Below, piece after piece: positions 7,940-26,137 of a DNA stretch of 64,000 nt. The notes under the pieces are model-generated. The model did no database searches and was not told the origin of the DNA. It was given only the letters and a program-made list of their open reading frames with translations. The stretch covers positions 16,219-80,218 of the forward strand of contig JAXLZU010000002.1 of NCBI GenBank assembly GCA_046350735.1, in the 5' to 3' direction. The stretch comes from Candidatus Saccharimonadota bacterium (GTDB lineage: Bacteria > Patescibacteriota > Saccharimonadia > CAILAD01 > BJGX01). How positions within the stretch are numbered: position 1 is the stretch's first letter; each line of letters starts with the position of its first letter. The position numbers and the translations under genes are program-made.

Positions 7940-10093
7940 CTATACTTCGATAACAACAGGCAAGACGATTGGTGTACGCTTGGTAACTTTATAGAGTAAG
8001 TTACTAATTTCGTCACGAATGCGGTTTTTAACAATTGGTGAGTTGGCCGGTGTACGTGGATTGCGCTTGGCAAAAACGTTCTTTACTATTTGGCGAGATT
8101 TATTCATTAGCTCTTCATTATCTTTAACATAAATAAATCCGCGACTAATAATATCTGGGCTAGTAACTAGTTTGCCCGTCTTGCGATTTACTGTAGCAAT
8201 AATAGTAAATACCCCATCACTTGCCATGGCTAAGCGATCTTTTAAGACGATTTCTTGTACATCACCGATACCCGAACCATCAATTAAGACTGAGCCAGAC
8301 TGAACAATTGGACCCAACTTGATTGTTTCATCCTTGGTTGCCTCGAGTGTTTGACCATTCTCGATAACAAAGATATTTTCTGGCTTAATAATGCCCGTGC
8401 GCTTGGCAATTTCTGCATTATGCACCAGATGATGAACTTCGCCATGAATTGGCAAATAGTACTTAGGACGTACTAGCTCTATCATCTCTTTTACTTCGTC
8501 ATAGTAGGCATGCCCCGAGGTATGTAGAATACCGAGATCGTCAAAATCACGCATATCCTGCTGATATACGTATGGTCCCCAACGATACAAATTATCTACC
8601 ATACCCCAAACGTCTTTTTCGTTACCAGGGATAATGGAGCTACAAAGCACTACTACATCGCTAGCCTTTAGCTTAATATCGCGATGTTCACCACGACCCA
8701 TTCTATTTAGTACGGCCATTTCTTCACCTTGCGAGCCAGTGGCGAGTACTACTAGCTCGGCATCGGGTATATTTTTTATCTGATCGGCTTTTACTAAGAG
8801 TCCGGGTGGTATCTTGATATAACCCATCTTAACAGCCAGCTCGGTATTTGCTAGCAAGCTTCTACCTACAATAGCAAGCTTACGTTTGGCCTTGGCAACA
8901 CCATCGATAATTAACTGAATACGGTTTACCTGACTAGAGAATGATGCGACAATAACTCGTTTGTTGTAATTGCGTACAAAGATTTCATCAAGAGTATCGG
9001 TAATACCCTTCTCGCTCGGACTATATCCCATTTTTTCACAACTAGTACTATCACACATTAGTAAGAGCACTCCTGCATCACCCAGCTCTTTCAAGCGTTC
9101 TTTATTACTTGGCTTGCCGTCGATAGGATCGTTATCAAATCGCCAGTCGCCTGTATTGATAATTGTACCTACAGGAGTATGAATAGCTATTGAGCAAGCG
9201 TCTGGAATAGAGTGGGTAATACGAATAAATTCTACTGAGAAAGCTCCAAGTTGAATTTTTTGGCCAGAGTCTTGGTCGATAGTTCGCATTTCTGGCTTAA
9301 AAGGCAGTTTGTATTCTTCTAGCTTGCGCTCGATGTATTTAATAGTAAACTGGGCTGCATAAATTGGCGCAGGCAGTTTTGGCAGTAAGAACGGAATACC
9401 GCCCACATGGTCTTCGTGTGCATGGGTAATTAAGTGAGCACGAATCTTATGTTTACGCTCTTCTAAATAGGTGGTATCGGGGATAATATAGTCAATGCCA
9501 GGCATATCCGGACCCGGAAACATAAAGCCAAGATCCATTACAATAATGTCGTCTTCGTACTCGAGTGCCATCATATTTTTACCAATCTTATCTAAACCAC
9601 CAAGAGGAATAATCTTTAGCTTGCCGGCATCTGCCTTTGTTAGACCAACTGGACTTTTTGTAACAGAGGTAGCTGGTTTGTGTGGCTGAGCCTTAGAGTT
9701 GCCATCAGAGTTAAAACTACCTTCAGAAAACACGGCCGGACCTCTGTCGTAGCGACGGCGCATAGCATGAGGATTACTACCTCTGCCCTGCCCATTGCCA
9801 CGTTTTTGTCCCTGGCCATTACCATTATGGTTTTTGTTTTGACCGTTCTTATTTTGTGCAGCCTGGTTTTTGTTCCAAGTTCTTTTTGGGTTATTGGGCT
9901 TGTTTTGACTCGAAGCATCGTTCTGTCTAGCAGCAGCATTAAAGTTGGCTGGCTTACTACCACCAGTTACAGGGTCTGCATTTGGGCGCGTCCCTTGTGG
10001 TTTTTGGCGCGGTTTTTCTGATTTGCCAATACCCAAATCAGCCGCGGTGAGCGGTCGTGAGTTAAGTGGTTTTTTATTGTTTTTAGTATCCAT
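7940..10093 (-). CDS. rnj: ribonuclease J with ~160-aa low-complexity N-terminal extension
   Basis: Metallo-beta-lactamase motif HAHEDHVGG, a beta-CASP domain and a C-terminal domain. The N-terminal ~160 aa are N/Q/G/K/R-rich and disordered. Confidence 0.92.
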   Translation of the reverse strand: MDTKNNKKPLNSRPLTAADLGIGKSEKPRQKPQGTRPNADPVTGGSKPANFNAAARQNDASSQNKPNNPKRTWNKNQAAQNKNGQNKNHNGNGQGQKRGNGQGRGSNPHAMRRRYDRGPAVFSEGSFNSDGNSKAQPHKPATSVTKSPVGLTKADAGKLKIIPLGGLDKIGKNMMALEYEDDIIVMDLGFMFPGPDMPGIDYIIPDTTYLEERKHKIRAHLITHAHEDHVGGIPFLLPKLPAPIYAAQFTIKYIERKLEEYKLPFKPEMRTIDQDSGQKIQLGAFSVEFIRITHSIPDACSIAIHTPVGTIINTGDWRFDNDPIDGKPSNKERLKELGDAGVLLLMCDSTSCEKMGYSPSEKGITDTLDEIFVRNYNKRVIVASFSSQVNRIQLIIDGVAKAKRKLAIVGRSLLANTELAVKMGYIKIPPGLLVKADQIKNIPDAELVVLATGSQGEEMAVLNRMGRGEHRDIKLKASDVVVLCSSIIPGNEKDVWGMVDNLYRWGPYVYQQDMRDFDDLGILHTSGHAYYDEVKEMIELVRPKYYLPIHGEVHHLVHNAEIAKRTGIIKPENIFVIENGQTLEATKDETIKLGPIVQSGSVLIDGSGIGDVQEIVLKDRLAMASDGVFTIIATVNRKTGKLVTSPDIISRGFIYVKDNEELMNKSRQIVKNVFAKRNPRTPANSPIVKNRIRDEISNLLYKVTKRTPIVLPVVIEV

Positions 10094-10853: not shown

Positions 10854-12998
10854 CTATTTAGGCTGGTCAATACCCTTCATAGTAAGATTAAGGCGACCAC
10901 GATCGTCTATCTCAGTAAGTTTTACGTTTACCGTCTCACCCTCACTTAGCTCATCACTAATCTTTTCGACTCGTTCGGTCTTAATCTGACTAATATGCAC
11001 CATACCTTCTTTACCAGGCATAATCTCCACAAATGCACCAAAATCCATCAGTTTTACTACCTTACCAGTGTAGGTCTTGCCTACTTCTGGTTCGGCAACA
11101 ATGGTTTCTACCCATTGCTTAGCCGCTTCGGCCTTAGCCTCATCATCAGAGTAGATCATTATAAGGCCGTTGTCTTCAATATCCATTTCTACACAAGTTT
11201 CGGCGGTAATTTTCTGAATAGTTTCGCCGCCCTTACCAATTACCTCGCGAATCTTTTCGGGATCGATTGTAAGCTTAGTAATACGTGGAGCGTACGGACT
11301 AACCTCGGCGCGGGGCTTCTCGATAGTCTTGGCCATCTCACCCATAATGTGCATTCTACCCTCTTTGGCTTGCGCCAAAGCTTCAGACATAATGCTAGCC
11401 GAGATGCCTTTTACTTTAATATCCATCTGCAGTGCAGTAATACCATCTTTAGAACCAGCTACTTTAAAATCCATATCGCCAGCAAAATCTTCGGCATCTT
11501 GTATATCAGAGAGAATAACATACTTCTTAGGGTTGGCATGGTCTATCATAAGACCCATTGCAATACCGGCTACAGGAGCCTTAATTGGCACACCTGCATC
11601 CATGAGACTAAGTGTAGAACCACATACACTTGCCATAGAGGTAGAACCTGCCGAAGAAAGGAGCTCGGATACAACACGAATAGTGTATGGAAACTCTTCT
11701 AACTCAGGCAGAACTGGTACCAATGCTTTTTCGGCTAAATAGCCATGCCCAATTTCGCGTCTACCTGTTGAGCGAACTGGACGTGCCTCACCAGTAGAAA
11801 ATGGCGGAAAATTATAATGGTGCATATAACGCTTTTCGGTATCTTCTTCCATGGTATCTACCAACTGAGCATCACTGGTTGGACCAAGTGTAGTAATAGT
11901 TAGGGCTTGGGTTGTACCACGGGTAAACACCGCACTACCATGTGTACGTGGTAACAGTCCTACTTGGGTGCTTATTGGACGAATTTCGGTAGTCTTGCGA
12001 TTATCTGGACGATGCCCTTCTTCTAAGATAGCGCGTCGTACTTCTTTATCTATTACCTTTTCGAAAGCATTGGCAACATCTGGATGGCTATAACGCACCC
12101 TATCGTCGGCTTCAACTTCGTCAGAAAGCAAGCCAAACTCGGCCATCACTTCGCTTTTAAGTTGCTCAATAGCTTCGTGTCGTTCTTGCTTGTTGGCTGA
12201 ACGAATATTTTCGCCGAGTTTAGGGCTAACAAACTCCGCTACTTTATCAACCACTTCTTCTGCAGGAGTAAAGAGCTCGAACTCTCGTGGCTTTACAGCC
12301 ATCTGTTTTACCAACTCTTCTTGTAGCTTAATAACTGGCTGCCAACTCTTTACAGCTAGCTCTAAGGCTTCGACAATAGTTTTCTCAGCCACCTCGGCAG
12401 CTGCAGCTTCTACCATCATAATTGCATCTTTTGTACCCGCCACAGTTAGATTCAGTTTGCTTTCTATCTGTTCACTTACTGTTGGGTTAACTACTAGTTT
12501 GCCTCCTATTTCACCTATTCGAGCAGCTGCAACCGGACCATCGAATGGTGCACCAGTTAGCATTAGTGCGGTAGAAGCAGCGATTACCGAAATAATATCT
12601 GGTTCTTGCTCTAAATCGGCACTGAGTACTGTTATCATTACCTGTACATCATCCCTATATCCTTTAGGAAATAACGGACGAATCGGTCTATCTATAAGAC
12701 GGCTCACCAATACTGCCTGATCAGATGGCTTACCTTCTCGTTTCATAAATCGAGAACCAGAAATCTTACCGCTAGCATACATACGTTCTTCGTAATCTAC
12801 TAGCAGTGGAAAGAAATCTGTATCTGGGCGAGCATCTTGCACTACTGCTGTTGCCAAGACTACTGTATCACCATAACGTACAGTAACAGCACCATCGGCT
12901 CTAAAAGCCAAGTTGCCTGTTTCGAATTCGAGTTTCTTACCTGCAAATTCTGTTTCTAATTTGATTTGTTTACCACCAAAAGGATGGATTATCTTCAT
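10854..12998 (-). CDS. pnp: polynucleotide phosphorylase
   Basis: 714 aa with two RNase PH domains, a KH domain and a C-terminal S1 domain. Sits in the conserved truB-rpsO-pnp gene order. Confidence 0.96.
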   Translation of the reverse strand: MKIIHPFGGKQIKLETEFAGKKLEFETGNLAFRADGAVTVRYGDTVVLATAVVQDARPDTDFFPLLVDYEERMYASGKISGSRFMKREGKPSDQAVLVSRLIDRPIRPLFPKGYRDDVQVMITVLSADLEQEPDIISVIAASTALMLTGAPFDGPVAAARIGEIGGKLVVNPTVSEQIESKLNLTVAGTKDAIMMVEAAAAEVAEKTIVEALELAVKSWQPVIKLQEELVKQMAVKPREFELFTPAEEVVDKVAEFVSPKLGENIRSANKQERHEAIEQLKSEVMAEFGLLSDEVEADDRVRYSHPDVANAFEKVIDKEVRRAILEEGHRPDNRKTTEIRPISTQVGLLPRTHGSAVFTRGTTQALTITTLGPTSDAQLVDTMEEDTEKRYMHHYNFPPFSTGEARPVRSTGRREIGHGYLAEKALVPVLPELEEFPYTIRVVSELLSSAGSTSMASVCGSTLSLMDAGVPIKAPVAGIAMGLMIDHANPKKYVILSDIQDAEDFAGDMDFKVAGSKDGITALQMDIKVKGISASIMSEALAQAKEGRMHIMGEMAKTIEKPRAEVSPYAPRITKLTIDPEKIREVIGKGGETIQKITAETCVEMDIEDNGLIMIYSDDEAKAEAAKQWVETIVAEPEVGKTYTGKVVKLMDFGAFVEIMPGKEGMVHISQIKTERVEKISDELSEGETVNVKLTEIDDRGRLNLTMKGIDQPK

Positions 12999-17163: not shown

Positions 17164-17754
17164 TTAATCCCAATACACAAATGGGTCGCGGTGCTGGGGA
17201 TAATGCTCATCGAGCCAGGCTACGGCTTCCTGTACAGCAGAGCGATGAGCACGGTACCGGACTTTCTTTGCAGACATGTCAGTTCCATGCCCTTCGGCTG
17301 GTATCTCGGCAGAACAAAGAAAGATAGCTTCACCGGTGGCCAGCAGTGCACTGCCGCCATCAGCCACTTCTCTCACAAATTCACGCAGACCATGATCCTC
17401 CAAAATCTCAGAAGGATCCCAATCTCGGACATTGTATCGACAGGTAAGGTACAGAGAAGCCTTGCGGTCGTATGCAGAGCCTTTGTAGAAGATCCTTGCA
17501 CGCTCACGATTGAGCTCATCCACAAGAGCGCTTACACGCGGCTCGAAACTCGGTACCACTTGCCAGCCTGGCGGCAAGATAACATTGAAAAACAGCTCAT
17601 CTTCGCAATCATTCAACACCACGCCACCCGCTACCAGTAACTCTTGGGCGCCAAAAGGCTCCATGGCACGCGGTAGTCTCTGGGTGACGGTCAGCTGAGT
17701 CTGTGCCACCCTCTCAGGATGTAGCACAAAGACATCTTCTGCATCAAAACCCAT
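17164..17754 (-). CDS. GC-rich orphan gene, hypothetical protein
   Basis: ~52% GC. The best start is the ATG at 17754 (MGFDAEDVF...) with a GGAGGAG RBS; the longer track ORF begins at a TTG. No recognisable motif. Flanked by its own terminator and a 228-nt leader containing a strong hairpin. Confidence 0.6.
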   Translation of the reverse strand: MGFDAEDVFVLHPERVAQTQLTVTQRLPRAMEPFGAQELLVAGGVVLNDCEDELFFNVILPPGWQVVPSFEPRVSALVDELNRERARIFYKGSAYDRKASLYLTCRYNVRDWDPSEILEDHGLREFVREVADGGSALLATGEAIFLCSAEIPAEGHGTDMSAKKVRYRAHRSAVQEAVAWLDEHYPQHRDPFVYWD

Positions 17755-18001
17755 TTTACTACCCTCCTCCAAAAGGTGCTTTTACGGGACTTTCCCGACC
17801 AGAACGCTCATAGGTGAAAGCTCTGGTCGATTCACCAGCCCAGGTTTACCCTGGGCTGGTGATGCAAGTAAGCTTCTACATGGGTTATTGAAGCTCTAAT
17901 TCCGCACGCGTACGGCGCAAACCCCTGCCTAGTTCGTCTTTTAAGGTGGTTATCGTTGTTTTTGGCTCATTGTTAGAACCTCAACCCATAGATAACCCGT
18001 G

Positions 18002-18167: not shown

Positions 18168-18303
18168 GTGCCTGATGACTCAGGCTACAAACCAAAACGA
18201 TACTGTTTTGGTTTGCGAAGGAGTGTTGCGGTATAGGCAGTTAGCCCACTCTGCAAATCAGCAGATAAGCAGAGTGGGCTTTAAGCCACAACCACAACAC
18301 GAG

Positions 18304-18679
18304 TGGAGCTGGGGGGAATCGAACCCCCGTCCATGAACCTTTCACTTTCATTCGCTACGACCATTCCCAAATTTCGGCTTTGTGGCCACCTTGGAGTTGG
18401 GTCTCCGCACCATCTAGTCTTTGCTAGAAGTCAGGCTGTCTTTGCAGCACGTCATCCGTCTTTCCGAATGTCAATCTCCACTTCTGTTGCCAGGCTGTGG
18501 TGATTTGGCCCCGTGCGGCATTGCTGCTCACGATGTCTCTCGACGTTACCCGATCAGGGATCAGGCGGCGGCGAGAGCGGGCGCCGGTGCGGCGTCTCTT
18601 TGGGTTCCCCGTTTAACGAGTCTGAGAAACTCGGGTCGCAAATGAAGCGTCAGTATCCATGTCGAAACCGATCAGCCCC
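18304..18679 (-). ncRNA. ssrA: tmRNA (SsrA)
   Basis: 5' end GGGGCTGATCGGTTTCGAC... and 3' tRNA-like end ...GGGGGTTCGATTCCCCCCAGCTCCA. An internal reading frame gives GCC GCA CCG GCG CCC GCT CTC GCC GCC GCC TGA, i.e. tag ...AAPAPALAAA*. Length 376 nt. Confidence 0.9.
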
Positions 18680-19986
18680 ATTAGTCGTCTTAGGCGGAAA
18701 AACGTAAGACGGCCAAGGAGACTGACTGGTTAAGGCTTATGGTTACTTTATTTATAGAAAAAATCCAAACCCTGTAGTTTGGAATAATTATGTACTCAAT
18801 GTGCATATGGAATGATATTAAATTATTCATCCCAACCACAGGCCTCAAATATAAGAACTCTGGTCGGGATCCATCAGGGAACCCGAAGGTTTCCTGATGG
18901 AAAACGGATGTGCCGCATCCGGATGGTCGTTATTAGACTTGGCACTTGGCGTGAACTTTTCCTGGCGAGCTGCAGCTCGGTTCACAAAGGCTTCCGTTTA
19001 AGCCTTCACCTTATATCCTACCGGTAATGCGAGTCCACGCTGTGGAGTTCGCCAGGGCCGCCTCTTAATAGAGGCCCATACTAGGTATGGCGACCAGGAT
19101 ATGGCATGAACGTTTTCGATTTCGAGTGGGGGGGTAGGAACATCATGCCTTGCACCCGTGTCCCACTCTATCTCTGCCTTACGGCTTCGAACATCCCACC
19201 ACACAGGCGGCGCTCAATCTTAACATTACTGCTAAGAGAGCTGCCTGCCCATGTGGCGGCGAGCCAACAGATCTTGTTTGAAGCGCCATAGGCCATCACA
19301 GCCACAGGCGTCCGGAGACAAAATCTGTTATCTAAGCCACACAAGCGTTCTCCAGACCATCGGATTGGGCTTTCTTTACCCTCTCCACCTTTTTGCAATT
19401 CCCCCACTTTCGTGGTAGTCCAATTAGGGCTAGGGTCGTCTTCGACGTCCCGGGCGTGGTCTTCTCTACACTCCTGATACAAACGTTTTTGTCCGCCTGT
19501 ATCGGGCACCATGTCGCAGGATGCCTCCCGCATTCTGGCGTGTTTGGCTGGCGATTTAGCTACAGCAAGCCGGCATGCATCGCTCCGATCGTGTCGGTCT
19601 GTCGCGCATGGCCTACAGTCCCCCTGCAGCAAGGTTTCTCATTTCGGTCGTACCTACTTTTGAAGAAACCTAACTTCGTACTTAAGGTGCTAGGCTTGCG
19701 CCCAAATGCCCTGCTTGCTAGCTAGCCACCAATGTGCTCTTTTTTATTTAAATATTTAGCACTGGTAATTTGCCAGAAGCAAAGCAAGGCAATTGGACAC
19801 AAGTTGTTAAGCTGTTTCGCTCTTTTAGAGCTCATCAGGATAAGTACTCACTTATCGACAGCTCCCCTGGCAATATAGCCAGGGGTTCTTGGGGGCTTGT
19901 TACAGCCCTAACGGCTCCAAGTGCCGTGAGAAATTCTGTTACCAGGCTTTCTCGTGAGCTTTCGCTCGCCCTGTAGCTGAAGCCGG

Positions 19987-20184
19987 CTACCCGGCCGCCA
20001 TCATCAGCTCCAGCTCGTCCTGGGTCATCTCGCTGTGTGCGAGCTGATCCACCCGGAACGGGTGGATGAAGGTGCTCTGGCGAGCCACCATGGTGCTGGT
20101 GGTGCTGGCGGTGGCGACGGGCTGGCGCAGCTTGCGCCGCCCAGCGCGATGGCGCGCTGACTTCTGCTTGGAAAGCTTTGACAT
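19987..20184 (-). CDS. very GC-rich (~65%) small basic protein, hypothetical
   Basis: 65 aa, MSKLSKQKSARHRAGRRKLRQPVATASTTSTMVARQSTFIHPFRVDQLAHSEMTQDELELMMAAG. The ATG at 20184 has a GGAGGA RBS 7 nt upstream. The long upstream extension in the ORF track is implausible because it is AT-rich and out of character. Confidence 0.45.
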   Translation of the reverse strand: MSKLSKQKSARHRAGRRKLRQPVATASTTSTMVARQSTFIHPFRVDQLAHSEMTQDELELMMAAG

Positions 20185-20336
20185 GTACAGGTCCTCCCTC
20201 GGGTACAACACCAGGTCTACGGTGTACTGTTTGGTAGTATAGCAAATATAATAATTAATGTCAATAGTTATTAACATTTTATTTATAAAATATCTATTTA
20301 TATCTGATATTTTTTATTATTTTATGTTTATTAGCA

Positions 20337-20367
20337 ATAAAAAAACCGTTTTCAGTACAGAAAACGG
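20337..20367 (-). terminator. rho-independent terminator (minus strand)
   Basis: Hairpin ccgttttc-agtacag-gaaaacgg overlaps the stop of the 20352-20699 gene. It is preceded on the plus strand by A9, which is a T-run on the minus strand. Confidence 0.5.
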
Positions 20368-20699
20368 GTAAAGTATGCTTCGGGCAAGAATGGCCGGATC
20401 ACCGCCAGTGTGGCACGCAAAGCTGCAACCACTGTTGCCACTTCATCAATCGACACATTCCCAGCCTTATGGAGACTCCACACATTCTCCACAATACTGC
20501 ACATACCTAATACATATGCGTAGCACTCGTGCTCGTCTAATAGGTTGATACCCTGCTCTTGCATGGTATCGAGAATAAGCTGATGATGGTCCTCAACCGG
20601 GCCAATGGATGCATTGATATGATTTGCCTGGAGAGTTTCGAGAAGGTCTACAACCAATTCCCAACGAGTAGAAAACTCGGTTACACCCGGCTTTGTCAT
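20352..20699 (-). CDS. hypothetical protein
   Basis: 115-aa ORF with a terminator directly at its stop; no motif recognised. Confidence 0.5.
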   Translation of the reverse strand: MTKPGVTEFSTRWELVVDLLETLQANHINASIGPVEDHHQLILDTMQEQGINLLDEHECYAYVLGMCSIVENVWSLHKAGNVSIDEVATVVAALRATLAVIRPFLPEAYFTRFLY

Positions 20700-20831
20700 T
20701 GGTCTGCACTCTTTTCTTTAGGTACGGGTAAATCCGGGTAATTATATCTGTAAAAACATATTTAGTCAAGCATTAACACTTTTACATATAATAAATGCGC
20801 CCCGCCATAGGTTGGCAGGGCGAAACAATTG

Positions 20832-21131
20832 TTACTGAATTCGAACTTTGTGGGGGCACGATGGTGCCGTTTGGTTTTGCGGAACGATTGTCGATCTTCG
20901 ACCAAATAGCGATCGGCAAAACCATATGAGAACCTTTATGACTGTCTTGGCTCCAAGCTCAGTTACTCGGATACCGAGACGCTCTACATCTGTTAGGTAG
21001 TCATTGAAGTCCTTACGAACTTCGTGGTGCAGTTCTGGCACGTAGTTCTCCTCTTCGGAGATGGTTGCTGCTTACTCGAGCAGCCCTACAGGATTCAGCC
21101 TGGGAGGCCTTCTCCACCATATTTACTCATG
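20832..21131 (-). pseudogene. possible decayed gene (strong RBS + 11-codon ORF MSKYGGEGLPG*, then out-of-frame 69-codon ORF)
   Basis: AAGGAGA sits 6 nt before the ATG at 21131, followed by a stop after 11 codons. The downstream ORF 20832-21041 (…VPELHHEVRKDFNDYLTDVERLGIRVTELGAK…) is in a different frame and has no proper start. Confidence 0.25.
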
Positions 21132-21281
21132 GTGGTCTCCTTCTACTACATTACCTTCGCCATTACCCCAGTGGCCACCCGCAAGCGGGTACAAACGGGC
21201 GTTTTGGCTGTGGCAGATTGCTCTACCTAAGCCAAAAAATGACTCTCTTATAATACTTTATAATAGTTAATTTGTCAATAC

Positions 21282-22076
21282 TTATTGACGTTTCTTATTC
21301 TCTGCTAGCTCAAATAACTGCCGGAGAGTCTCGACAATTTTTGGACTTTCTATTAATATACCAACACTTTTTTCGCCTGCGTAAGTAATAAATGAGGCCC
21401 TATTGGGATAAAGATTAATTTCTGCCTGAAATTCTTTATCTACACGAGTAAGTTTTTTTATGAGACTTTTCTTCTGAGCAGACAACTCTGTCTCTTTAGA
21501 ATAGTAAATTGTCTCAGCAACAATACCCTTTTTAATTCGGCGACTAACGCCCGAGGTAGTTGGGTCGGCTTTAATAGCTTGGTCGTAATTAACAACACTG
21601 TAGATAATATCGTCTTTCTTTGCTTTGCGAATAAGCTCTTGGCTGAGCTGATTAGACCCCTCAAGCCCTTTATAAAATCGCACCTGAGGAGCATCATCTC
21701 CATCGGTAGCTCGCGAAGTTTCTCGTAGCTTGGGCATAAGACTCTTTAGCTCATCACTTCGAGAAGCAATTTCGTTTTTTTGCTTATCTAAATATCTAGC
21801 GATAGCTTCTGGCTGCTCGGCTACGTATACAGTTTTTTTGCCTTCTTGGCTTTCTGATACTAAGCCCATTTTGGCAAGCTCGTCTAAAATAACGTATGCG
21901 GTAGCACGATTTACCTCAGCTTGTGAGGCAATTTTTTGTACGGCGCTTGGGCCCAAAAATAATGCCGCCACGTATACACGGGCTTGCTTGTCGGTAAAAC
22001 CAACAGATTGTAATTGGGCGGCTAGTTCTGATATTTGCATAAGCTCTATACTAGCATACGTAGCCAATGTTGTCAA
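21282..22076 (-). CDS. TrmB-family transcriptional regulator
   Basis: N-terminal winged-HTH (FTDKQARVYVAALFLGPSAVQKIASQAEVNRATAYVILDEL) plus a C-terminal TrmB-like effector domain. Confidence 0.75.
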   Translation of the reverse strand: MTTLATYASIELMQISELAAQLQSVGFTDKQARVYVAALFLGPSAVQKIASQAEVNRATAYVILDELAKMGLVSESQEGKKTVYVAEQPEAIARYLDKQKNEIASRSDELKSLMPKLRETSRATDGDDAPQVRFYKGLEGSNQLSQELIRKAKKDDIIYSVVNYDQAIKADPTTSGVSRRIKKGIVAETIYYSKETELSAQKKSLIKKLTRVDKEFQAEINLYPNRASFITYAGEKSVGILIESPKIVETLRQLFELAENKKRQ

Positions 22077-22422: not shown

Positions 22423-23282
22423 TTATTCTATTGCAGCTCGAATTCTTTGCTCGAGTTCTCTCTTTTGATCTTCACGCACGTCAAATCCTTCAATTTGATT
22501 CTGATTAATTGCAACTTCTTTTTGCCGTGAACCAAGATCGTCAATATTACCGCCAGTTTTAATATCTATGGCAACCTCTCGCCCATCACGTGTAGTAATA
22601 ACCATATCGGTACCCTTAGCATCTTCGGACTGAGTACTTAGTCTTACTCTATCACTTCCATATAGTTGCCGAGCCAAACGAGCAACGGCAACCTCTGATC
22701 CCATTCCGCCACTACCTTACGTGCAGTACCACCAGCACCTTGCATGGCCCTTTCTATCCAGTTTTCCACATCTTTTCTTGGTACTACATCTGCCACTGTA
22801 TCAATCAGTTCTCTTAGTTTGTGATTCCAGGGTAAAATCTTTGCTGCTTCGAGTTTGCGCTGACTACGCAAACTACTTCGCTCAGTTGCTAGCTCTGGAG
22901 GAAGTTGATGGTTTGGTTGATCTTTGGCTATTTTCTTTAGCTGACTTAAACGGTCATTAATTTTATTCAGACCTTCTTGAACCCTGGCAGCCTCGGGGGC
23001 AGATAGAATAACATCGGCTAAATTAGCTAGCTCGGCATATTCGGCATTATTGACATATTTTTCTCTAGTACGGGCTAAGGCAATTGCCAGCGCAGAAGGA
23101 AGGCGCATCTCTGTGGGAGTTTTATTACCAGGATTATCGATAACATCTTTTTGCTCGTTTTTGATTGATAGAAAGATATCATTAACCTCCCACTCAAATG
23201 TCTCTTTATCTATCACATCTAAATGCGGCAAGGCATCTGGCCCAGACCCAGTAGGCGGTAATTTTGCTTCCATTATGCTCAT
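22423..23282 (-). pseudogene. frameshifted gene: N-terminal 212-codon ORF + C-terminal 93-codon ORF carrying a PD-(D/E)xK-like motif
   Basis: ORFs 22644-23282 and 22423-22704 overlap by 61 nt in different frames. The downstream part contains GTDMVITTRDGREVAIDIKTGG (D...ExK/DIK), a restriction-endonuclease-like pattern. Confidence 0.35.
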
Positions 23283-23835: not shown

Positions 23836-24759
23836 CTACATTTTACCAAGTGTTATTAACAGTTCTTCTAGAGCTGCATTCGAGCTGCTCTGCCCAGTCT
23901 TTATTGTCATATCTGCATCTATAATAGCTTTGTAGGCAGCCTTTATCTTATCTAGTGTAAGTGTTCGGGCAATACTTTGGCTTTTCGAAACAGCATAAGG
24001 TGCAAGACCAAACTGTTTTGCCCAGCCCGAAGTATCGCCCTCATGAATTTTACAGAGTGTCAAAACTCGGTATTGATACATAATGGCACCAAGAATCTTC
24101 TGGTCGGGCTCATTTTGTGCAACCAAGCTACGATACGTATCTACGGCCTTGCCAACCTGTTGTTTGGCAAGTGCATCAGTCATAACAAAGACAGAATACT
24201 CTACATTTGGCACTACCAACTTATCGATAGAATCAATGGTAAGTGTTGGATTATAATTAACCAATTTTTGAATTTCGTTTTGCAATTGCCATTGGTCGAA
24301 ACCTACTTTTTCTATGAGTACAGAAATTGTTCTATTGTCGATAGTTGCACCCTCGTTTGCTACTAACTTTCGTATCCAGCCAACCAGTTGTGGCTGGCTA
24401 AGGTTATCAAATTTTTTGGCGTTTTTTAGGCTAGAAAGCACTTTATATACTGCACTACGCTTATCTGGGTTGCTATCAATTAATACCAGAATGGTCGACT
24501 CTGATACCATCCCTAACATTTGCTCTAACTTAGCCTTTTCCAATTTTAACAAGCCAAAGTCTCGCACAATAAGTAGCCTACTACTGGCAAACATAGGTAT
24601 TACTCCAAGAGAATTTAACAGCTTAGAGAGCGGATCGCTCGACATATCAAACCGTTCTATCTCGAGCGAACCACCCGTCTTCTTCTGATATTGCTCGCTT
24701 AGGGCACTTAATTGCTGCTGAATAGCAAAACTATTCTCACCATAAAAATAAAAAATCAT
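23836..24759 (-). CDS. holA: DNA polymerase III delta subunit
   Basis: 307 aa with the overall HolA architecture (MIFYFYGENSF...) and C-terminal helical domains. Confidence 0.8.
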   Translation of the reverse strand: MIFYFYGENSFAIQQQLSALSEQYQKKTGGSLEIERFDMSSDPLSKLLNSLGVIPMFASSRLLIVRDFGLLKLEKAKLEQMLGMVSESTILVLIDSNPDKRSAVYKVLSSLKNAKKFDNLSQPQLVGWIRKLVANEGATIDNRTISVLIEKVGFDQWQLQNEIQKLVNYNPTLTIDSIDKLVVPNVEYSVFVMTDALAKQQVGKAVDTYRSLVAQNEPDQKILGAIMYQYRVLTLCKIHEGDTSGWAKQFGLAPYAVSKSQSIARTLTLDKIKAAYKAIIDADMTIKTGQSSSNAALEELLITLGKM

Positions 24760-24944
24760 ACCTTATAGAATAAAGGATAAAGTGCAATCTATAAAGCTAA
24801 AGAGTTCTTACTTTCGCCATCTATGGCTCATCAGTACAGCTTACATCTGTAGAGTAAGAAGAAGAGAGGAAATAGTGCAGGCTAAGGGTTGGGAGTATAA
24901 CAGATCGAATATTCGATACGTTAGGGACTCCCAATACCCAGCCC

Positions 24945-25166
24945 TTATGGCCATCTACGTGCTCGGTCCAAGTCTCGCTGCAAATCGCGTATGCGCGTAC
25001 GATCGTTTCTGCGAGCTCGCACGAGCAAGCCAACGGCAACCACAAGACCAGCAATGAAAGCAACCAACAGAATGTAGCCAAAGTAACTTGAGACAATTGC
25101 CAGCAAGAAAACAAGCCCGATAACAGCAAAAATGAGCTTCAGAAGATTATCATAAAACTTCTGCAT
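24945..25166 (-). CDS. small membrane protein
   Basis: 73 aa with two hydrophobic helices and an R-rich tail. Confidence 0.35.
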   Translation of the reverse strand: MQKFYDNLLKLIFAVIGLVFLLAIVSSYFGYILLVAFIAGLVVAVGLLVRARRNDRTRIRDLQRDLDRARRWP

Positions 25167-25246
25167 CTCAACCTCTTCCTCTCTTCAGGTACATCAACCC
25201 TTTTGGGCGATAAAGTATCATATCAATCTTAAGAGTATATGTCAAA

Positions 25247-26137
25247 CTATTTTGACACTTTTTTTGAGAGTCGCTGGCACTTTGGACAAAAATGTGTACC
25301 ACGCCCGGCCACTCGGGTTTTTTGAATAATACCTCCGCATACCGGGCACTCTTTGCCCTCGCGGCGAAAAACCTTGGCAAACTTGAGATAACTCCCTTTA
25401 TTACCTTTAGCGTCCACATAGTTTTTGTCGGACGAGCCACCCAGACGAATACTTAACAGCATCACCTCTCTTAGAGAATTAAATAGCCTGTGCAGCTTAA
25501 CCGTGCTTACATCTGCTACCTTGGTAGCTGGGTGTATTCTCGCTGCAAACAGGCCCTCATCGGCGTAGATATTTCCTACCCCTGCTACTACTGTCTGGTC
25601 GAGTATGGCGGCTTTTATAGAAGTATTCTGACGTTTTTGTACAGCTGTCTTAAATTGTGCAAACGTATAATTATCTTCTAAAGGCTCTGGCCCCAGCTTA
25701 CGTAAGAAGGCATTACGCTCGTACAATCCTTCTGTCTCTTCGAGCTTTACCCAACCAAATTTGCGCTGATCGTTGAAAAACAGTGTACCTTTAGCAAACT
25801 CAATAATTACTCGAGTAGAATTGTCGGGTAATCGGCTAATAAGACTGTCACTAGGATGTCCACCACCAAAACCCTTACCGTGGGTTGGCCGATACACTAA
25901 TTGGCCGGTCATCTTAAGGTGAATAAGCAAGCTATACCCACTACTGAGTGGAATAATTATTGCTTTGCCGCGCCTGTCTACCGACAAGACGCTGGCACCA
26001 AGCATTTTTTTGCTAACTAGGGTTGCATCGTTAGGAAAGCTTTTGGTCCAATTACTCTCTACATGAGAAATTTTTTGGCCAACCAAAAACTGTGCCAATC
26101 CGGCACGGACAGTCTCTACTTCGGGTAATTCTGGCAT
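25247..26137 (-). CDS. mutM: formamidopyrimidine-DNA glycosylase (Fpg/MutM)
   Basis: The true start is MPELPEVE (catalytic Pro2), so the start is moved to 26137. It has an H2TH domain and a C-terminal zinc finger CPVCGG...CPKC. Confidence 0.9.
   Translation of the reverse strand: MPELPEVETVRAGLAQFLVGQKISHVESNWTKSFPNDATLVSKKMLGASVLSVDRRGKAIIIPLSSGYSLLIHLKMTGQLVYRPTHGKGFGGGHPSDSLISRLPDNSTRVIIEFAKGTLFFNDQRKFGWVKLEETEGLYERNAFLRKLGPEPLEDNYTFAQFKTAVQKRQNTSIKAAILDQTVVAGVGNIYADEGLFAARIHPATKVADVSTVKLHRLFNSLREVMLLSIRLGGSSDKNYVDAKGNKGSYLKFAKVFRREGKECPVCGGIIQKTRVAGRGTHFCPKCQRLSKKVSK

Follow-up and report, generated by a model that had tools for sequence, protein, structure and literature searches.

What is encoded in the 2.6 kb on the 5' side of the transfer-messenger RNA (tmRNA) gene ssrA in the genome of a Candidatus Saccharimonadota bacterium (GTDB lineage Bacteria; Patescibacteriota; Saccharimonadia; CAILAD01; BJGX01)? 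We addressed this question in a window of 64,000 nucleotides (assembly GCA_046350735.1, contig JAXLZU010000002.1, positions 16,219 to 80,218 of the forward strand; coordinates below count from the first letter of this window). A preliminary description had singled out the interval 18680-21280 as poor in open reading frames (ORFs), rich in GC and dense in hairpins, and had proposed structured RNA genes or, alternatively, a decayed integrated element. Our reading is that one transcript would cut itself, by means of a hammerhead ribozyme, into the mRNA of a small protein and a large noncoding RNA (ncRNA); we would give a probability of about 0.7 to this anatomy and processing, as distinct from any function of the RNA. 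The latter, about 1.1 kb in length, is probably a new large structured ncRNA, to judge from its sequence.

The ssrA gene was placed on the minus strand by ARAGORN and Rfam, and genes for tRNA-Lys and tRNA-Glu directly follow it on the same strand. This adjacency to tRNA genes is like that of ROOL and GOLLD RNAs, as a resemblance of context only. The flagged interval therefore lies upstream of ssrA, as had been claimed, and all of its relevant elements read on the minus strand. The GC content, which averages 0.419 over the window, rises to 0.50-0.55 over 18800-19700, in line with the ~52% earlier given for 18840-19750, and to 0.63 over 19850-20149. In a consensus scan of the minus strand, near-perfect sigma-70 promoters came to light at 21278, 20769 and 20264, with a fourth further upstream, and terminators matched them. 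Combined with the ORF list, these signals resolve the upper half of the interval as three small units of transcription. The gene-less stretch comprises 18758-19986, and 19987-21280 holds three small minus-strand genes, encoding 69, 115 and 65 aa. Thus "ORF-poor" is true of 18680-19986 and untrue of 19987-21280. In the same way, the idea of a structured RNA gene is borne out over ~1.2 kb of the minus strand (18758-19986), the other 1.3 kb being three ordinary protein genes; two of these, at 19987-20184 and 20352-20699, had been rightly picked out as a tiny gene and a 115-aa ORF. From its promoter down to ssrA, the unit of interest is laid out as follows:

20236-20264, minus strand: promoter of the unit (TTGACA, 17 nt, TATACT with a TG extension; 11/12 matches)
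20184-19987, minus strand: 65-aa orphan gene, with a basic N-terminus (MSKLSKQKSARHRAGRRKL...), GC 0.66 and GC content at third codon positions (GC3) 0.88
19865-19986, minus strand: conserved 3' untranslated region (UTR) of the 65-aa gene, from the alignment, with a GAAA-capped hairpin inside it and a hairpin at its end (19885-19864)
19864-19809, minus strand: type III hammerhead ribozyme (Rfam RF00008, Hammerhead_3; 43.9 bits, E 1.2e-7 in the region)
19808-19559, minus strand: 5' domain of the ncRNA (RNAalifold on three lineages, 80 pairs; z = -3.9)
19803-19695, minus strand: P1, a long hairpin with a conserved A/U-rich loop, AAAUAUUUAAAUA
19672-19631, minus strand: P2, with an invariant 21-nt loop
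19630-19559, minus strand: P3, part of the 5' domain
19544-19269, minus strand: variable domain, a lineage-specific expansion arm of ~280 nt (z = -3.3)
19268-18790, minus strand: 3' domain of the ncRNA, with ~14 helices, including a UUCG-capped hairpin at 18900-18871
18783-18757, minus strand: intrinsic terminator of the ncRNA (hairpin 18783-18764 plus a U run), 85 nt before ssrA
18303-18679, minus strand: tmRNA gene, ssrA (103 bits), followed by tRNA-Lys and tRNA-Glu

Relatives of the locus were fetched with the flanking proteins as anchors. Those used below are L011, a metagenome-assembled genome from New Zealand groundwater, in which TrmB is 89%, the 115-aa protein 82% and a neighboring 202-aa protein 64% identical; L018, from GCA_029778565; L021, a partial contig; and L004, a strain 99% identical to the window. 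As an anchor, the 202-aa protein recovered L011 and, in addition, distant homologues on phage-like contigs without the RNA. The order of promoter, 65-69-aa ORF, 3' UTR hairpin, hammerhead, long ORF-less stretch, hairpin with U run, and tmRNA is complete in the divergent lineages L011 and L018 and partial in L021. In L011 and L018, the tmRNA gene likewise has the genes for tRNA-Lys and tRNA-Glu next to it. Three lineages also have the wider neighborhood in common, namely S20, holA, TrmB, the locus itself, an AAA33 kinase, DHH, TruB, S15 and PNPase; the gene at the edge of the interval that had been called trmB-like turned out to encode a transcription regulator of the TrmB family (PF01978). The hammerhead and 3' domain of L011 were misplaced by MAFFT and were realigned by domain and by covariance model. 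When a 20-mer from the invariant core was searched against metagenome contigs, only two chance matches (L012, L013) were found; the scan missed the window's own JGI contig, so this metagenome collection is not exhaustive.

The hinge of the proposed transcript is the hammerhead. Scanning 18600-21400 with cmscan at E<=10 returned, besides the edge of the tmRNA and chance matches to miRNA and S15 models, only the element at 19864-19809 (E 2.7e-6 when the whole 64 kb is scanned). It is the one meaningful match from the Rfam search that the preliminary description had suggested, and had been missed by eye. Its sequence, GGGGAGCUGUC|GAUAAG-UGAGUA-CUUAUC-CUGAUGA-GCUC-UAAAA-GAGC-GAAAC-AGCUU, has the type III core in full, and the predicted cut falls between C19857 and G19856 (GUC|G). 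Orthologous hammerheads occupy the same position in L018 (45.0 bits) and L011 (33.5 bits), and the core elements CUGAUGA, GAAA and GUC are invariant in the window, L004, L018, L021 and L011. There are three helices, of which stems I and II are closed by loops and stem III is open, and the stems covary: stem I reads GAUAAG/CUUAUC, GGUAAG/CUUACC or UCCUG/CAGGA, and stem II reads GCUC/GAGC, GCUU/AAGC or a 7-bp GC-rich helix. A compensatory pair of changes, A19855G with U19840C, is found even in strain L004. From the sequence, the element is a canonical type III hammerhead with an intact, covarying core, and self-cleavage is predicted. Our literature search found no paper linking hammerheads with Saccharibacteria.

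A further hammerhead lies elsewhere in the window:

24858-24807, minus strand: second type III hammerhead (covariance model hit 24859-24805; Rfam 29.3 bits, E 4.6e-4)

This sequence, CUUACUC|UACAG..CUGUA-CUGAUGA-GCCA-UAGA-UGGC-GAAA-GUAAG, has its predicted cut at 24852/24851. It sits in the 3' UTR of a gene for a 73-aa protein with two transmembrane segments (25166-24945), after a conserved hairpin and ~50 nt before holA. Hammerheads are present at the syntenic sites of all three lineages (L018 5300-5376; L011 3021-3098; context in the window 24759-25250), and the 73-aa protein is identical to that of L018 at 72/73 residues, with 20 third-position differences in the gene. A model pooled from both sets finds exactly two matches per locus, so that this clade twice uses a design in which a small gene is followed by a 3'-UTR hairpin, a hammerhead and then the next RNA. 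In the pooled alignment of eight hammerheads from both sites, 14/17 stem pairs change on both sides, and the only invariant pairs, in 8/8, are A15.1-U16.1 and G10.1-C11.1. Paired cells amount to 96.3%, against 30-44% when the partners are slid. This alignment was fitted to a covariance model built from the variants themselves, which favors the structure; the stems read directly from the sequences agree with it.

The RNA beyond the predicted cut extends on the minus strand from 19856 to about 18758, roughly 1,100 nt, and is about 0.75 kb in L011. Its 5' domain holds a block of ~140 nt that is almost identical in all three lineages, and very few columns of this core differ between the window and L018. 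The 21-nt loop of P2 reads by eye like a sarcin-ricin/loop-E module. More variation is available in the 3' domain, where 59/477 columns differ between the window and L018: paired columns account for 8 substitutions/260, all of which keep the pair, and unpaired columns for 51/217. Of 105 pairs predicted here by RNAalifold, 18 are changed on both sides; paired cells make up 89.7%, compared with 31-43% for slid partners, and the observed values were reached in 0/500 shuffles. The covariation check proposed in the preliminary description thus came out in favor of structure, both in the hammerhead stems and in the pair-keeping substitutions of the 3' domain. The terminator hairpin and its U run are conserved in L011 and L018, helix 15 being invariant. 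Between the two domains, the arm of the window is unrelated in sequence to that of L018 except at its conserved 3' edge, and in L011 it has shrunk to 39 nt with a CACAC-CCGG-GUGUG hairpin; it behaves like an expansion segment. A role of the variable arm as a guide was considered and rejected, as it has no complementarity above chance to the window or the L018 locus.

Two further lines of evidence concern the nature of this RNA. Folding z-scores, calculated on the minus strand against dinucleotide shuffles, are -3.3 to -4.9 for ~250-nt segments of the long RNA, compared with -4.2 for the tmRNA and -0.4 to -2.2 for neighboring coding sequence; with the adjoining UTR and hammerhead the range becomes -3.3 to -7.0, so the excess of structure noted earlier is real. 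The two hairpins quoted as perfect both exist, the first with one mismatch in its 14-nt arms (93% complementary). GNRA and UNCG tetraloops on stems of at least 4 bp are biased to the RNA strand, with 6 vs 0, 5 vs 0 and 3 vs 1 on the opposite strand in the three lineages. As for coding potential, the similarity in tblastx against L011 is spread over all six frames, interrupted by stops and switching frame, and L018 has no ORF >60 aa on the RNA strand. In strain L004, the 198-nt ORF has 5 substitutions and the 56-nt hammerhead has 4, against a single 2-nt deletion in the ~800 nt of the RNA that is covered. Judged by these sequences, the long RNA is non-coding, with no conserved reading frame, and the conservation of its 5' and 3' domains exceeds that of the flanking 115-aa (47%) and 69-aa (37.5%) proteins. 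It therefore combines pair-keeping changes, a lack of coding potential and transcription signals of its own, as would be looked for in any structured ncRNA.

No known family accounts for it. Searching Rfam models, at the gathering score and, in the window, down to E<=10, gave no match to ROOL, GOLLD, OLE, HEARO, raiA, RNase P, SRP, 6S or group I/II introns; in the relatives (L018 9400-13000 at E<=1; L011 at E<=0.01) no long-RNA family was found either. Hairpins of ~40 nt (UCCCGACCAGAG...CUGUGGUUGGGA) flank the tmRNA-tRNA cluster at 18830-18869 and 17793-17832 of the window and at ~11850-11889 and ~12618-12660 of L018; L011 has only the downstream one, at 9911-9950. The arms of the two hairpins are also complementary to each other, and the pair might work as a stem for processing, terminate transcription or be bound by a protein.

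The 65-aa ORF upstream of the hammerhead is a real gene, judging from synonymous-only differences and conserved length: in each of the four lineages it is 65-69 codons long and has a Shine-Dalgarno sequence, and between the window and L004 there are 5 synonymous and 0 non-synonymous differences. The promoter elements TTGACATTTATTA..TTTGCTATACT recur unchanged in L011, L018 and L021. The terminal hairpin of its 3' UTR (19885-19864) abuts hammerhead stem III and covaries across lineages (CCCCUGGC/GCCAGGGG, CCCCGACU/AGUCGGGG and CCCCGGC/GCCGGGG), and the segment of UTR and hammerhead, 19986-19809, has a folding z of -7.0. The protein had no relatives beyond its own cluster among 5.8e9 or 1.84e9 proteins, and no match in Pfam, PHROG, NCBIfam or PADLOC.

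The composition of this gene is unusual, with a GC3 of 0.83-0.89 in all four lineages, in genomes of ~42% GC where the neighboring genes have a GC3 of 0.23-0.50. The folding z of its mRNA is -4.4. These two properties suggest that RNA structure is under selection inside the ORF or, alternatively, that a high-GC origin has left a lasting mark. A long-range pairing of the mRNA part with the long RNA was also considered and was rejected, since the duplex energies were no better than those of shuffled controls. A GC-rich motif of 14 nt (minus strand, CUCGCCGCC...) is found where the tmRNA tag reading frame ends (18562-18575), again within the ncRNA (19250-19263) and once more inside the 65-aa ORF (20105-20118); this is probably chance in GC-rich sequence.

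On this anatomy, the strong conserved promoter at 20264-20236 would give rise to one minus-strand primary transcript of ~1.47 kb, carrying in order the 65-codon ORF for a basic protein, a 3' UTR of ~120 nt, the hammerhead, ~1.05 kb of highly structured RNA and the terminator. The hammerhead would cleave itself at C19857/G19856. The upstream product would be an mRNA of ~370 nt, with the stable hairpin and then a 2',3'-cyclic phosphate at its 3' end, and the downstream product would be an ncRNA of ~1,100 nt with a 5'-OH, the first nucleotides of which would be paired in hammerhead stem I. Since its 5'-OH nucleotide is paired in this way, the ncRNA should be shielded from 5'-end-dependent decay. 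In design, the ncRNA would combine a 5' core that hardly varies with a 3' domain of many helices and a single arm able to expand. Through the ribozyme, mRNA and RNA would be made together and yet have separate fates afterwards. We infer co-transcription, cleavage in vivo and the stability of both products.

A bolder version of this model is possible, and we would put it at somewhat less than even odds. The RNA would then be the first representative of a class of large ornate bacterial RNAs that is new and specific to a Saccharibacteria clade, with a 5' end both made and capped by a hammerhead; it would form a stable particle (a ribonucleoprotein, an RNA-only assembly or a ribozyme) with the 65-aa protein, and the ~280-nt arm would be tolerated or adaptive. 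The particular proposal that the RNA works as a stable particle, with the co-expressed basic protein as its probable partner, is a guess, with about one chance in three of being right.

Several observations weigh against the self-cutting transcript or its bolder version. With three full lineages, one partial lineage and some strain variants, the covariation rests on few sequences and has low power, and the structures tested were predicted from the same sequences on which they were tested. The most conserved core never varies and so carries no information on its pairing, and the central ~280 nt are not conserved between lineages. The hammerhead scores of 43.9, 45.0 and 33.5 bits (E 1e-7 to 8e-4) are all under the Rfam gathering score of 48.5, owing to the lengths of the loops and of stem II and not to the core. 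The partnership of the 65-aa protein with the RNA is a guess, and the AF2 model of the protein is poor (pLDDT 66, pTM 0.20). RNase J1 reportedly degrades 5'-OH cleavage products, as in work on glmS in Bacillus; if it did so here, the downstream ncRNA might be unstable. Finally, the stretch of minus strand that separates the terminator from ssrA (18783 to 18679) gave no consensus sigma-70 promoter, so the RNA could be the leader of an ssrA-tRNA precursor.

This last point leads to the main rival. The mRNA, hammerhead, spacer, tmRNA, tRNA-Lys and tRNA-Glu might form a single precursor of a stable-RNA operon, from which the hammerhead detaches the mRNA and RNase P and other enzymes free the tmRNA and tRNAs; the long structured leader or spacer would be discarded once it had aided folding or processing. 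All elements share one strand, the RNA lies next to ssrA in three lineages, the terminator stem has only 3 G-C pairs, and the similar hairpins at 18869-18830 and 17832-17793 that flank the tmRNA-tRNA cluster could form a processing stem. The missing promoter also fits, bearing in mind that the scan was limited to consensus sigma-70 sites; ssrA, having no sigma-70-like promoter at 18680-18783, may need upstream read-through or a non-consensus promoter. However, a hairpin and U run are kept in three lineages exactly at the end of the RNA, and constraint above that on the flanking proteins, over 1.1 kb in the window and L018 and ~0.75 kb in L011, exceeds what would be expected of a spacer that is thrown away. 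The upstream member of the flanking hairpin pair is, moreover, absent in L011. We regard the precursor as unlikely.

The integrated element proposed earlier as an alternative is far less probable still. On that explanation, the locus would be a horizontally acquired remnant of a mobile element or prophage at a tRNA/tmRNA hotspot, with a phage-type hammerhead and little or no function for the cell. Prophages and the vicinity of integrases are indeed common places for bacterial hammerheads, which cut long transcripts there (PMC3088659), the 65-aa ORF has a GC3 of 0.88 in a 42% GC genome, and the neighboring 202-aa protein has homologues of 31-37% identity on phage-like contigs. Yet there is no integrase among the ORFs and no phage gene, PHROG gave no match, 50,697 phage records gave no blastn or tblastn match, and three core patterns gave none among IMG/VR viral contigs. 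In place of the prophage surroundings that are frequent for ROOL and GOLLD, the RNA has the same housekeeping neighborhood in three lineages, and it is more constrained than its neighbors. The search for att-like repeats recommended in the preliminary description found the 25-nt 3' end of ssrA only once in the 64 kb, even with 3 mismatches allowed, which is not what an ssrA island would leave behind. Such islands insert at the 3' end of ssrA, whereas this block sits 5' of it. Decay of protein-coding sequence, with incidental hairpins, is scarcely credible. Both strands do contain long spurious ORFs, of 154 aa and 110 aa in the case of the window, and some of these have been annotated by gene callers in the relatives; but they differ between lineages, no frame is conserved, and the similarity jumps frames and crosses stops. 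Furthermore, the conserved blocks are more alike than the real genes nearby, their substitutions preserve pairs, and the tetraloop bias is strand-specific. The preliminary description would have accepted simple gene decay given syntenic protein genes in relatives and neither Rfam nor covariation support; what the relatives have at this position is the same RNA.

The remainder of the flagged interval is occupied by two ordinary transcription units:

21041-20832, minus strand: 69-aa gene with a GTG start, a promoter at 21278-21250, a conserved leader of ~200 nt and a terminator at 20822-20798
20699-20352, minus strand: 115-aa gene, with a promoter at 20769-20741 and a terminator at 20367-20346

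The 69-aa protein is 74% identical in L011 and 37.5% in L018 (E 1.6e-15). Its frame is intact and has signals and homologues; what had been taken for a decayed ORF in 20700-21280 is therefore an intact gene. The leader (21042-21243, minus strand) is conserved in L011 and has a folding z of about -3. Within it lies an upstream ORF (21130-21095) of 11 codons, MSKYGGEGLPG (MNKFGGEGLPG in L011), which has its own AGGAG and overlaps a CCACCAU/AUGGUGG hairpin; the leader with this ORF may be a leader-peptide or attenuator device. Gene calls of 151/152 aa on the opposite strand, between TrmB and the 115-aa gene, were rejected, since the similarity hops frames and the call in L002 has stops. The latter is a public 152-aa call (L002 1181-1639) opposite the 69-aa gene, in DNA identical to that of the window; it has three in-frame stops under table 11 and was evidently called with another genetic code.

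The 115-aa protein, for which family searches gave no match, is 47% identical to P0016 of L018. In L011 (7133-7939) its homologue is 268 aa long, with ~460 extra nt on the 5' side that have no counterpart in the window. The N-terminal half of this 268-aa protein was considered as the origin of 20700-21280 and was rejected for want of a tblastn match. On the other side of ssrA, just downstream of the tRNAs, the 202-aa protein (17164-17772, GC 0.52) has its 31-37% homologues on L015 and L017, contigs that are phage-like in having many short overlapping genes together with Lar and NUDIX genes. A 93-aa ORF at 22423-22704 has a weak match to the pPIWI_RE-associated REase (Pfam E 0.034; PADLOC E 0.012), below any threshold.

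How does the locus compare with known systems? Bacterial RNAs this large and complex are few: the rRNAs, RNase P, tmRNA, group I/II introns, OLE, GOLLD, ROOL and HEARO. Several large bacterial RNAs turned out to be catalysts, guides or self-assembling particles. Patescibacteria are little-understood epibionts whose genomes are under strong pressure to shrink. That ~1.1 kb (~0.75 kb in L011) is nevertheless kept under tighter constraint than the neighboring proteins suggests a function that matters. The two conserved hammerheads in 64 kb, each after the 3'-UTR hairpin of a small gene, would have a concrete role in separating an mRNA from the RNA that follows, and one of them would define the 5' end of an ncRNA.

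The transcripts that known bacterial hammerheads cut are polycistronic and come mostly from prophages (Perreault et al. 2011, PMC3088659). The present one resembles those of RF00008 and of prophage operons in its full core, open stem III and GUC triplet, and in its position between two units of what would be one transcript. Unlike them, it stands in a chromosomal housekeeping context in a Saccharibacteria clade, its downstream product would be a ~1.1 kb ncRNA and not another mRNA, and the body of the ribozyme would remain on the 5' end of that RNA and cap it. If this is true, it would be, to our knowledge, the first large ncRNA of a cell to owe its maturation from a protein-coding transcript to a self-cleaving ribozyme of its own.

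In size and architecture, the nearest parallels are GOLLD and ROOL, which range from several hundred to ~800 nt, have many helices and junctions, and often lie beside tRNA genes, with which they are perhaps co-transcribed (PMC5737381). They are known to assemble into RNA-only multimers (PMC12286853). The RNA described here is likewise large and multi-helix and lies beside tmRNA and tRNA genes. It differs from both in having no Rfam match, in not being in a prophage, in being preceded by a hammerhead and a small ORF, and in being known from three related lineages only.

Another parallel is offered by OLE and Oap, RNase P RNA and RnpA, and tmRNA and SmpB, where, as here, a large conserved RNA is encoded beside a small dedicated protein. 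The 65-aa protein has a strongly basic N-terminus, a trait of many RNA-binding tails, and RNA binding is putative. In contrast to that likeness of arrangement, no sequence or family relationship to any of these systems was found, and we know of no case among the OLE, RNase P and tmRNA systems in which the RNA and the mRNA of the protein are separated by a self-cleaving ribozyme. Lastly, in the glmS ribozyme and the mammalian CLEC2-type 3'-UTR hammerheads, self-cleavage in a UTR sets the ends of an mRNA and hence its stability. The Saccharibacteria element shares with these the location of a self-cleaving ribozyme in an untranslated region. Whereas they regulate their own mRNA, here the upstream mRNA would keep its protective hairpin, and the conserved part is the RNA downstream.

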